A DNA stretch of 64,000 bases from Escherichia coli (GTDB lineage Bacteria > Pseudomonadota > Gammaproteobacteria > Enterobacterales > Enterobacteriaceae), in the NCBI RefSeq assembly GCF_030384885.1, contig NZ_CP128613.1, one strand, 5' to 3'. Below, in pieces: positions 27,001 to 30,000 of the stretch. Position numbers: made by a program. Each line of letters starts with the position of its first letter. Positions within the stretch are counted from its first letter, which is position 1.

Positions 27001-30000
27001 GCCGTTTCGCCACCCACAAGCGAACAGCCCGATTGCAGACAACCTTCCGCAATGCCGCTGATCACCGCTGAAGCGGTATCAACATCCAGTTTTCCGGTTG
27101 CGTAATAGTCGAGGAAAAAGAGGGGTTCCGCGCCTTGTACTACCAGATCGTTAACACACATGGCGACCAGATCGATACCAATGGTGTCGTGACGTTTTAA
27201 GTCCATCGCCAGACGCAGCTTGGTGCCAACGCCATCAGTGCCGGAAACCAGCACGGGTTCACGATATTTTTGCGGCAATGCACACAGCGCACCGAAGCCG
27301 CCCAGACCGCCCATCACTTCCGGACGACGCGTTTTCTTCACTACGCCTTTGATTCTTCCAACCAGAGCATTACCCGCGTCAATATCAACACCGGCATCTT
27401 TGTAGCTAAGAGAGGTTTTATCGGTCACTGCTTGGGTCCCCACGCGTTACTTGCGGTAGAAAAATAAAATTCGGCGCAATTCTAACAGGGAAAGCAAACG
27501 TTTGCGAGACTGCTTTACACAACCTTTTTGTACGTCTTTTCCCCAGGCGCGCGGCAAAAGAATACTTGTACCAGGGCAAAGGATCGTTTTCGGATGGAAT
27601 AATCTTCTTCCATAACCATTTGAATATAAAATAACTTTATCTCAAACCGTTATCATTTTGACTAAAGTCAACGAAAATAATATTGCCGCCTTGAAGAAAG
27701 GAGGTATAATCCGTCGATTTTTTTTGTGGCTGCCCCTCAAAGGAGAAAGAGTATGAAGATCGTGGAAGTCAAACACCCACTCGTCAAACACAAGCTGGGA
27801 CTGATGCGTGAGCAAGATATCAGCACCAAGCGCTTTCGCGAACTCGCTTCCGAAGTGGGTAGCCTGCTGACTTACGAAGCGACCGCCGACCTCGAAACGG
27901 AAAAAGTAACTATCGAAGGCTGGAACGGCCCGGTAGAAATCGACCAGATCAAAGGTAAGAAAATTACCGTGGTGCCAATTTTACGTGCCGGTCTGGGGAT
28001 GATGGACGGTGTGCTGGAAAACGTTCCGAGCGCGCGCATCAGCGTCGTCGGTATGTACCGTAATGAAGAAACGCTGGAGCCGGTACCGTACTTCCAGAAA
28101 CTGGTTTCTAACATTGATGAGCGTATGGCGCTGATCGTTGACCCAATGCTGGCAACCGGTGGTTCCGTTATCGCGACCATCGACCTGCTGAAAAAAGCGG
28201 GCTGCAGCAGCATCAAAGTTCTGGTGCTGGTAGCTGCGCCAGAAGGTATCGCAGCGCTGGAAAAAGCGCACCCGGACGTCGAACTGTATACTGCATCGAT
28301 TGACCAGGGACTGAACGAGCACGGATACATTATTCCGGGCCTCGGCGATGCCGGTGACAAAATCTTTGGTACGAAATAAAGAATAAAAAAAATTAAAGCC
28401 GACTTTAAGAGTCGGCTTTTTTTTGAGTAAAGCGCCTATAACACATAATACAGAGGATAATACTATGACGCGCCGTGCTATCGGGGTGAGTGAAAGACCG
28501 CCACTTTTACAGACAATCCCGCTTAGTTTGCAACATTTGTTCGCCATGTTTGGTGCAACCGTCCTGGTGCCCGTCTTATTTCATATTAACCCGGCGACTG
28601 TACTGTTATTTAACGGTATAGGAACGCTGCTGTATCTCTTCATCTGTAAAGGGAAAATCCCGGCTTATCTTGGTTCCAGCTTTGCCTTTATTTCACCGGT
28701 ATTGTTACTGTTGCCGTTAGGGTATGAAGTCGCGCTGGGCGGCTTTATTATGTGCGGCGTGCTGTTCTGCCTGGTTTCTTTTATCGTGAAGAAAGCGGGG
28801 ACTGGCTGGCTGGACGTGCTGTTTCCGCCAGCGGCAATGGGCGCAATCGTTGCCGTCATCGGTCTGGAACTGGCGGGCGTAGCTGCCGGTATGGCGGGGT
28901 TACTCCCGGCTGAAGGGCAAACTCCAGACTCCAAAACCATCATCATCTCTATTACCACCCTGGCAGTCACGGTTTTAGGTTCCGTGCTGTTTCGTGGTTT
29001 CCTGGCAATTATCCCAATTTTAATTGGTGTGCTGGTAGGGTATGCGCTCTCTTTCGCAATGGGGATTGTCGATACCACCCCGATTATTAACGCCCACTGG
29101 TTTGCGCTGCCAACTCTCTATACGCCGCGCTTCGAGTGGTTTGCCATTCTGACTATTCTGCCAGCGGCGCTGGTGGTCATTGCCGAGCACGTAGGGCATC
29201 TGGTAGTAACGGCTAATATCGTCAAAAAAGATCTGCTACGCGATCCGGGTCTGCACCGTTCGATGTTCGCTAACGGCTTGTCGACTGTGATCTCCGGCTT
29301 CTTTGGCTCCACGCCAAACACCACCTACGGGGAAAACATTGGCGTTATGGCGATCACCCGCGTTTACAGTACCTGGGTTATCGGTGGGGCGGCGATTTTC
29401 GCTATCCTGCTTTCCTGTGTCGGTAAATTGGCTGCCGCTATCCAGATGATCCCGCTGCCGGTGATGGGCGGCGTTTCGTTGCTGCTTTATGGTGTTATCG
29501 GTGCTTCCGGTATTCGTGTTTTGATCGAATCGAAAGTGGATTACAACAAAGCACAGAACCTGATCCTGACTTCCGTGATTTTGATCATCGGTGTCAGTGG
29601 CGCGAAGGTAAACATCGGCGCGGCGGAGCTGAAAGGTATGGCGCTGGCGACCATCGTCGGTATCGGCTTAAGTTTGATCTTCAAACTGATTAGTGTGCTG
29701 CGCCCTGAAGAAGTGGTGCTGGACGCAGAAGACGCGGATATAACAGACAAATAATGTACCGACCGGGCAGTGTTGCTGCCCGGTTCAAACATCATGGGAT
29801 TCTGTGGTAAACTTCTCGCGATTTTGTGAAATCCTGGTTGAGGTATCTCTGAACACACCGGCACAGCTCTCTTTGCCACTTTATCTTCCTGACGACGAAA
29901 CCTTTGCAAGTTTCTGGCCGGGGGATAACTCCTCTTTACTGGCCGCGCTGCAAAACGTGCTGCGTCAGGAACATAGCGGTTACATCTATCTCTGGGCACG

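Follow-up and report, generated by a model that had tools for sequence, protein, structure and literature searches.

A conserved intrinsic terminator inside the upp-uraA transcription unit, beside separate PurR and UTP control elements, in Escherichia coli

The purMN/upp-uraA locus of Escherichia coli was analysed within a 64,000-nucleotide stretch of contig NZ_CP128613.1 (the window, whose coordinates are used throughout unless K-12 numbering is stated), with emphasis on the intrinsic terminator that lies between upp and uraA. An E. coli chromosome matches positions 27300-28600 at 100% identity, and 5,424 complete E. coli genomes match them at 95% or more. In the RefSeq annotation of the identical stretch the minus strand encodes ppx, ppk1, purN and purM and the plus strand upp, uraA and hda; the gene order purN-purM / upp-uraA-hda is the same in K-12 MG1655. 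The K-12 alignment to 27420-28480 has no gaps, which allows exact transfer of coordinates. Pfam matches agree with the annotated identities (AIRS and AIRS_C for PurM, UPRTase for Upp and Xan_ur_permease for UraA). The features of the locus are collected in Table 1, and the comparison set consisted of 80 loci from different Enterobacterales species, fetched with Upp as the probe.

Table 1. Features of the purM to uraA region in window coordinates (CDS, coding sequence; ORF, open reading frame; ChIP-chip, chromatin immunoprecipitation on microarrays).
Feature	Coordinates	Strand	Description	Basis
purM CDS (AIR synthetase)	26391..27428	-	start codon GTG at 27428	RefSeq annotation, Pfam, ORF list
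Probable purM -10, TAGAAT	27479..27484	-	preceded by TGT (extended -10-like); matching -35 inside pur box	sequence inference only
PurR operator (pur box) of purMN	27492..27507	.	AAGCAAACGTTTGCGA; TCGCAAACGTTTGCTT on the purM strand	pattern search, ChIP-chip identity, conservation
FNR-type palindrome	27658..27671	.	TTGACTAAAGTCAA, upstream of the upp promoter	sequence, PMC3266220, conservation
upp promoter, TTGCCG-16-TATAAT	27683..27710	+	10/12 matches; GGTATAAT kept in 77/80 loci	promoter scan, conservation
upp initially transcribed region	27716..27726	+	GATTTTTTTTG; T8 run 27718-27725	sequence, literature, conservation
upp CDS (uracil phosphoribosyltransferase)	27753..28379	+	ATG at 27753	annotation, Pfam
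Intrinsic terminator, upp-uraA junction	28395..28424	+	hairpin 28395-28419, T8 28417-28424	folding, 3'-end maps, all 80 loci
40-nucleotide spacer and uraA leader	28425..28464	+	Shine-Dalgarno GAGG; C/A-rich	sequence
uraA CDS (uracil:H+ symporter)	28465..29754	+	ATG at 28465	annotation, Pfam
Distal operon end hairpin	29761..29791	+	GACCGGGCAGT-GTT-GCTGCCCGGTT; strong, lacking a U-tract	sequence

The upp-uraA junction contains the hairpin AAAGCCGACTT-TAA-GAGTCGGCTTT, with 11 pairs of which five are G-C, built around the core GCCGACT/AGTCGGC (28398-28416) and overlapping the T8 run. The element begins 15 nucleotides (nt) past the upp stop codon and ends 40 nt before the uraA ATG. The hairpin folds at -16.7 kcal/mol, compared with -8.4 +/- 2.3 kcal/mol for shuffled sequences (z = -3.6), and none of 200 shuffles folded as well, giving the junction the stable hairpin and U-rich tract of an intrinsic terminator at exactly the position where the initial annotation had placed a strong one. 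Pair probabilities of the core were 0.985-1.0 in sequence contexts of 45-190 nt, and folding of the same contexts revealed no antiterminator or competing structure. Searches of 27000-29000 and 28300-28500 against Rfam, run at permissive thresholds, returned no family at threshold; sub-threshold matches to STnc240 (29.6 bits vs a gathering value of 55) and to Trp, Thr and Phe leaders were discarded, as they align only to a generic hairpin with a U-tract.

Published transcript maps place RNA 3' ends at this terminator in vivo. In the TRS analysis of RNAtag-seq and term-seq 3' ends (PMC10687069), where R is 1 minus the local read-through, one dataset has a terminus at K-12 2620196-2620206 (dominant position 2620200, R = 0.92, rank 662), and in three LB libraries the adjusted p does not exceed 1e-96. 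The other dataset has a terminus at 2620198-2620206 (dominant position 2620198, R = 1.0, p = 0), and both are labelled 'Alternative primary in TU' for upp, with this same hairpin displayed (PMC10687069). In window coordinates the dominant positions 2620200 and 2620198 are 28425 and 28427, where the U-tract comes to its end, and the terminator is therefore functional in vivo. It forms 3' ends inside the upp-uraA transcription unit, as the initial annotation had held, and the R values are at odds with a uniform transcript coverage across the junction. The 3' end itself is already listed in that published genome-wide table.

What is new at the junction is the extreme sequence conservation of the terminator. 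Each of the 80 loci has a hairpin followed by a T run after upp; uraA comes directly next in the 79 loci that reach that far, mostly 27-73 nt past the T run. The arrangement A-GCCGAC-(loop)-A-GTCGGC-T8-G is letter-exact in 68/80 loci, and the T run is exactly eight in 74/77, at an evolutionary distance where upp retains only 36-85% identity to the window (median 52%) at its four-fold degenerate sites, synonymous sites being near saturation. Among 67 distinct sequences the eight pairs are always formed; six are invariant and two vary only from A-U to G-U. The single compensatory change seen is that of Erwinia persicina (AACCGAC...GTCGGTT). A covariation test of the hairpin is uninformative because its pairs scarcely vary. 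The terminator of uraA, taken as a control, shows covariation within the Enterobacteriaceae, and other families have an altogether different one in its place.

The surroundings of the stem are variable: the loop ranges from 4 to 7 nt, the flanks on either side differ among loci, and the upp stop codon is 5-183 nt from the hairpin, lying 5-19 nt before the core stem in 70/77 loci. Insertions of 90-180 nt with a repeat-like appearance occur between the upp stop and the hairpin in Yersinia (L058, L065, L068) and Pantoea (L063, L070), as well as in L060 and L067, leaving the hairpin untouched. Those of Yersinia and Pantoea share the core ...GTACGCTCCGGTTTCT..GCGCTGTCCGTG..CAAA.TGCCTG.GC..., as might be expected of a small mobile or repeat element; this core had no match in Rfam. 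An array of about five tandem units of ~85 nt, each ending in the hairpin AAAAACGCCTTTGGCGTTTTTTT, was observed between the upp terminator and uraA of Brenneria roseae (L071, ~3170-3600), a locus that is also devoid of the TATAAT-GATTTTTTTT promoter layout. Two other explanations for the conserved letters were rejected. The hairpin is not a repeated element, being present in a single copy per E. coli genome (at least 99% identity in 5356/5427 records), and a reading of GCCGAC/GTCGGC as a DNA operator does not fit: the spacing of its half-sites varies from 4 to 7 nt and the RNA pairing is always kept, the varying spacing arguing for a function in RNA.

On the other side of upp, purM begins with the GTG of 27428, where the RefSeq annotation and the terminal residues of the protein place it, and not with the in-frame GTG further upstream, at 27443, to which the ORF list extends the frame. 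With the start at 27428, the purM-upp intergenic region is 27429-27752 (324 nt), which corrects the span of 27444-27752 given at first. The middle of this spacer (27525-27600) holds 9 of the 11 intergenic differences from K-12 and is absent from most other genera, where the spacers are ~100 nt shorter; on such comparisons this stretch looks free of constraint.

The near-perfect pur box announced between the purM and upp starts was recovered at 27492-27507. It matches the perfect palindrome ACGCAAACGTTTGCGT at 14/16 positions, both mismatches being the outermost bases, and retains the central CG and the GCAAAC/GTTTGC half-sites. Allowing up to two mismatches, the pur-box pattern had two matches in the 64-kb window vs 0.05 expected, and none of 100 shuffles reached two. 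The other match, ACGCAAACGTGTGCGT at 50853-50868, is the better one, with one mismatch to the palindrome, and read as its reverse complement it is the operator tabulated for purC among the PurR ChIP-chip sites (PMC3159470). The box in the intergenic region has, on the purM strand, the same letters as the PurR ChIP-chip site for purM-purN in K-12 (PMC3159470), where it lies at 2621118-2621133 (2619140-2619155 in the older numbering of that paper); it is thus the already published PurR operator of purMN. It occupies the positions 64-79 nt ahead of the purM start codon, and on the minus strand its 3' side continues into TCCCTGT-TAGAAT. Read from these letters, the box probably extends over both the -35 and the spacer of a purM promoter with TGT-TAGAAT, although the simple promoter scan did not list this promoter. 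A PurR site 28 nucleotides upstream of purM has been described, in agreement with the promoter proposed here, and deletion of the pur box (pInterD2) reduced the protective effect of a multicopy intergenic clone, an effect which the authors ascribed to titration of PurR (PMC3266220).

The initial annotation regarded the pur box as part of a control region shared by the two divergent units, a view that the comparison does not sustain. In the window the box, which covers part of the probable purM promoter, is ~210 nt from the upp start sites, on their upstream side. Of the 68 loci in which the purM start is present, 63 have the pattern TCGCAAACGTTTGC[CT]T at 54-133 nt from it (55 loci at 54-68 nt), and the pattern stays with purM at purM-upp gaps of ~210-320 nt and of 1.8-2.0 kb alike. 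The FNR-type palindrome and the T-tract promoter stay beside upp in the wide-gap genomes. The box is consequently an element of purMN and not a shared divergent operator, because it follows purM when the genes are apart; judged by these arrangements, the control modules of purM and upp are physically and evolutionarily separable. The wide gaps belong to Citrobacter, Enterobacter, Leclercia, Pluralibacter and relatives (L008, L009, L010, L013, L018, L030, L032, L033, L037-L039, L047, L048 and L059); that of L010 (858-2288) contains a glycoside hydrolase family 1 gene, probably for a 6-phospho-beta-glucosidase, and the other wide gaps are similar in size. According to the proposed mechanism, PurR with hypoxanthine or guanine would bind 27492-27507 and, through the overlap with the -35 and spacer of the purM promoter, would repress purMN, leaving upp unaffected.

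The main regulatory device of upp, the T8 start region that is already published, was overlooked by the initial annotation, as was the FNR-type site. The upp promoter was the only strong sigma-70-like site found by the promoter scan on the plus strand of 26300-30000. It is followed by the start region in the order TATAAT-CCGTC-G6-A7-T8-G (27705-27726), which is the sequence layout of the class represented by upp and codBA: at least six T in the non-template strand, the run beginning 1-2 nt past alternative start sites that are themselves 6-7 nt past the -10 hexamer. The start sites are taken to be G6 at 27716 and A7 at 27717. The arrangement GGTATAAT-N5-GA-T(7-9), with the T run at a constant distance from TATAAT, is retained in 77/80 Enterobacterales loci, and this retention is the new observation for the upp start region. 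Two loci, labelled Serratia marcescens (L045) and Candidatus Symbiopectobacterium (L056), have no T-tract promoter at upp, their longest T run being three, and keep the junction hairpin.

The sequence GATTTTTTTTG has been named as the reiterative-transcription site of upp-uraA (10.1101/732214), and PMC12709180, with reference to Tu and Turnbough (1997), describes the UTP (uridine triphosphate) control of upp as start-site choice coupled to non-productive reiterative transcription. Literature and conservation together establish these promoter elements, as they do the PurR operator. The upp-uraA unit is transcribed from a sigma-70 promoter of its own, which faces the opposite way to that of purM at a distance of 244 nt, with its output governed by UTP. 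When UTP is high, RNA polymerase would start at A7 and slip on T8, releasing AUUUU(n) transcripts, and at low UTP it would start at G6 and enter ordinary elongation. The palindrome upstream of this promoter is described as an FNR site in PMC3266220, which states a centre at 61.5, while by our count the centre is 51.5 nt upstream of G6. A palindrome of the form TTGA[CT]-N4-[AG]TCAA occupies the equivalent position in roughly half of the 80 loci, the majority of them Enterobacteriaceae, and many other Enterobacteriaceae have a perfect TTGAT-N4-ATCAA at that position.

The features described above point to a locus that probably consists of three independent and mostly textbook elements, among them a constitutive leaky terminator that limits uraA. 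The terminator, a GC-rich hairpin of 8-11 bp followed by U8, would end most transcripts 15 nt past the upp stop, and a minority of transcripts would read through into uraA, which has its ATG 40 nt beyond. The permease would in this manner share the regulated promoter of the cytoplasmic enzyme, yet be made at a lower level. The promoter scan of the plus strand between 28300 and 28465 detected no promoter-like site before uraA; because of this, and because only 40 nt separate T8 from the uraA ATG, it is plausible that partial termination sets the upp:uraA ratio, and we infer that uraA depends on read-through. A sequence ending in ...ACACTCAGAGGAAAACACTATG beside uraA is conserved in the Enterobacteriaceae, and upp-uraA is treated as one unit both in the literature and in an EcoCyc-based classification (10.1101/732214, PMC10687069). 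The primary 3' end of uraA is at K-12 2618834 (R = 0.75; PMC10687069), approximately window 29791, just past the distal hairpin.

Three points weigh against this interpretation of the junction as a leaky terminator. The R values of 0.92-1.0 suggest that termination is possibly near complete, which puts in question how uraA is expressed. No direct read-through value and no upp:uraA transcript or protein ratio was found in the literature searched, and neither upp nor uraA is listed in the supplementary data of Adams 2021, Dar and Sorek 2018 or SMRT-Cappable-seq. In addition, a terminator that only sets a ratio leaves unexplained the freezing of the stem and of an exact T8 across the order, the more so as the adjacent uraA terminator turns over while that of the junction stays frozen.

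If termination were complete, the hairpin would be an insulator, uraA would be transcribed from a promoter of its own overlapping the 3' end of upp or the hairpin, and there would be no true operon. The R of 1.0, that is, no local read-through, in one of the 3'-end datasets agrees with such an arrangement, and weak promoter-like hexamers are present in the form of TTGAGT (28423-28428), a spacing of 15-16 nt and CATAAT/ATAATA (28444-28450); moreover, in 14/80 loci more than 90 nt lie between the terminator and uraA, enough to accommodate a promoter. However, none of this was recognized by the promoter scan between upp and uraA, and a start ~7 nt past this -10 would leave a leader of ~8-10 nt devoid of a Shine-Dalgarno sequence. 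Other genera keep the hairpin and the Shine-Dalgarno region but not these hexamers, and the long spacers found elsewhere hold repeat-like insertions and no conserved promoter (Rfam found nothing in four long-spacer loci). Together with the treatment of upp-uraA as a single unit, these observations make a separate uraA promoter unlikely.

The initial annotation called the terminator 'attenuator-like', and a regulated attenuator, with read-through into uraA following pyrimidine supply, could operate by UTP-sensitive pausing on U8 combined with a ribosome finishing upp, in the manner of pyrBI, or by a protein or small RNA acting on the stem. E. coli pyrimidine genes typically sense UTP through U/T runs, and the near-invariant T8 and a stem frozen without covariation exceed what the structure needs. 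The short distance from the stop codon to the core stem in most loci means that a terminating ribosome could cover the 5' arm in several genera, and uraA is down 17.6-fold on adenine, with a 2-fold change in a purR deletion and upp unmentioned (Cho et al. 2011, PMC3159470). Against this, core pairing with probabilities of ~1.0 leaves no antiterminator or competing fold, for which reason the label is unsupported in its regulated sense, and neither a sensor nor a cis-regulatory Rfam family at threshold was found. The stop-to-hairpin distance is not conserved and tolerates the insertions of 90-180 nt, which argues against an obligatory coupling to the ribosome, and in E. coli the core stem begins 18 nt past the stop, probably beyond the footprint of a terminating ribosome. 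Low UTP should, if anything, raise intrinsic termination, the opposite of the physiological need. A regulated attenuator is, on this balance, quite improbable.

The freezing of stem and T8 also brings up the possibility that the hairpin is a sequence-specific RNA element and more than a passive leaky terminator, which we regard as doubtful. Such an element may tune read-through into uraA by way of a protein, a small RNA or a UTP-dependent behaviour of the polymerase on U8, and it would then constitute a second, undescribed layer of pyrimidine control, independent of the upp promoter, providing uracil uptake with a post-initiation step. That the mapped 3' end reflects exonuclease trimming back to a stable hairpin, which would stabilise the upp mRNA instead of marking a termination site, is highly improbable: steady-state 3'-end maps alone cannot separate the two ('termination or processing', PMC10687069), but the end lies at the last base of a perfect U8 or 1-3 nt past it, 9-11 nt after the core stem, whereas trimmed ends are normally nearer to the stem, and a hairpin serving only stability would have no need of a conserved U8.

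The leaky terminator thus remains the preferred reading of the junction. The PurR operator, the mechanism of the upp promoter and the upp-uraA operon are textbook E. coli, giving the locus little discovery value; it serves better as a calibration case, in which a reader working from the sequence alone found two real elements and misassigned the logic of the operator. What interest it retains lies in the strong sequence conservation of the junction terminator.

Compared with known systems, the pur box shows no difference from the operator of the E. coli pur regulon, being the same site (He, Smith and Zalkin 1990; Cho et al. 2011). The upp start region likewise belongs with the UTP-sensitive promoters of upp, codBA and pyrBI (Tu and Turnbough 1997; Qi and Turnbough 1995), the window having the exact GATTTTTTTTG 5 nt past TATAAT. 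The junction resembles the pyrBI attenuator and the pyrR-pyrP attenuators of Bacillus subtilis in being related to pyrimidines and in placing a terminator before a downstream gene, and the Bacillus pyrR-pyrP order is likewise that of a phosphoribosyltransferase-type gene, a terminator and a uracil permease gene. The pyrBI and Bacillus systems, however, have an antiterminator/anti-antiterminator or a leader peptide as sensor, and none was found at the upp-uraA junction. PyrR is not known in E. coli. The loop CCAGAGAG of Pantoea, together with the Bacillus order, brought PyrR-like control under consideration; its likeness to the PyrR-binding motif is, so far as we can judge, accidental, and this candidate was rejected for want of support in other genera. 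The junction is also like operon-internal intrinsic terminators that reduce the expression of distal genes, for example the rpoBC attenuator of rplKAJL-rpoBC and the terminator of rpsU-dnaG-rpoD, in having a hairpin and U-tract between co-transcribed genes, with an in vivo 3' end and a distal gene, here uraA, that has no evident promoter of its own. From typical terminators, that of uraA included, the upp-uraA terminator differs in a sequence conservation that is far higher.

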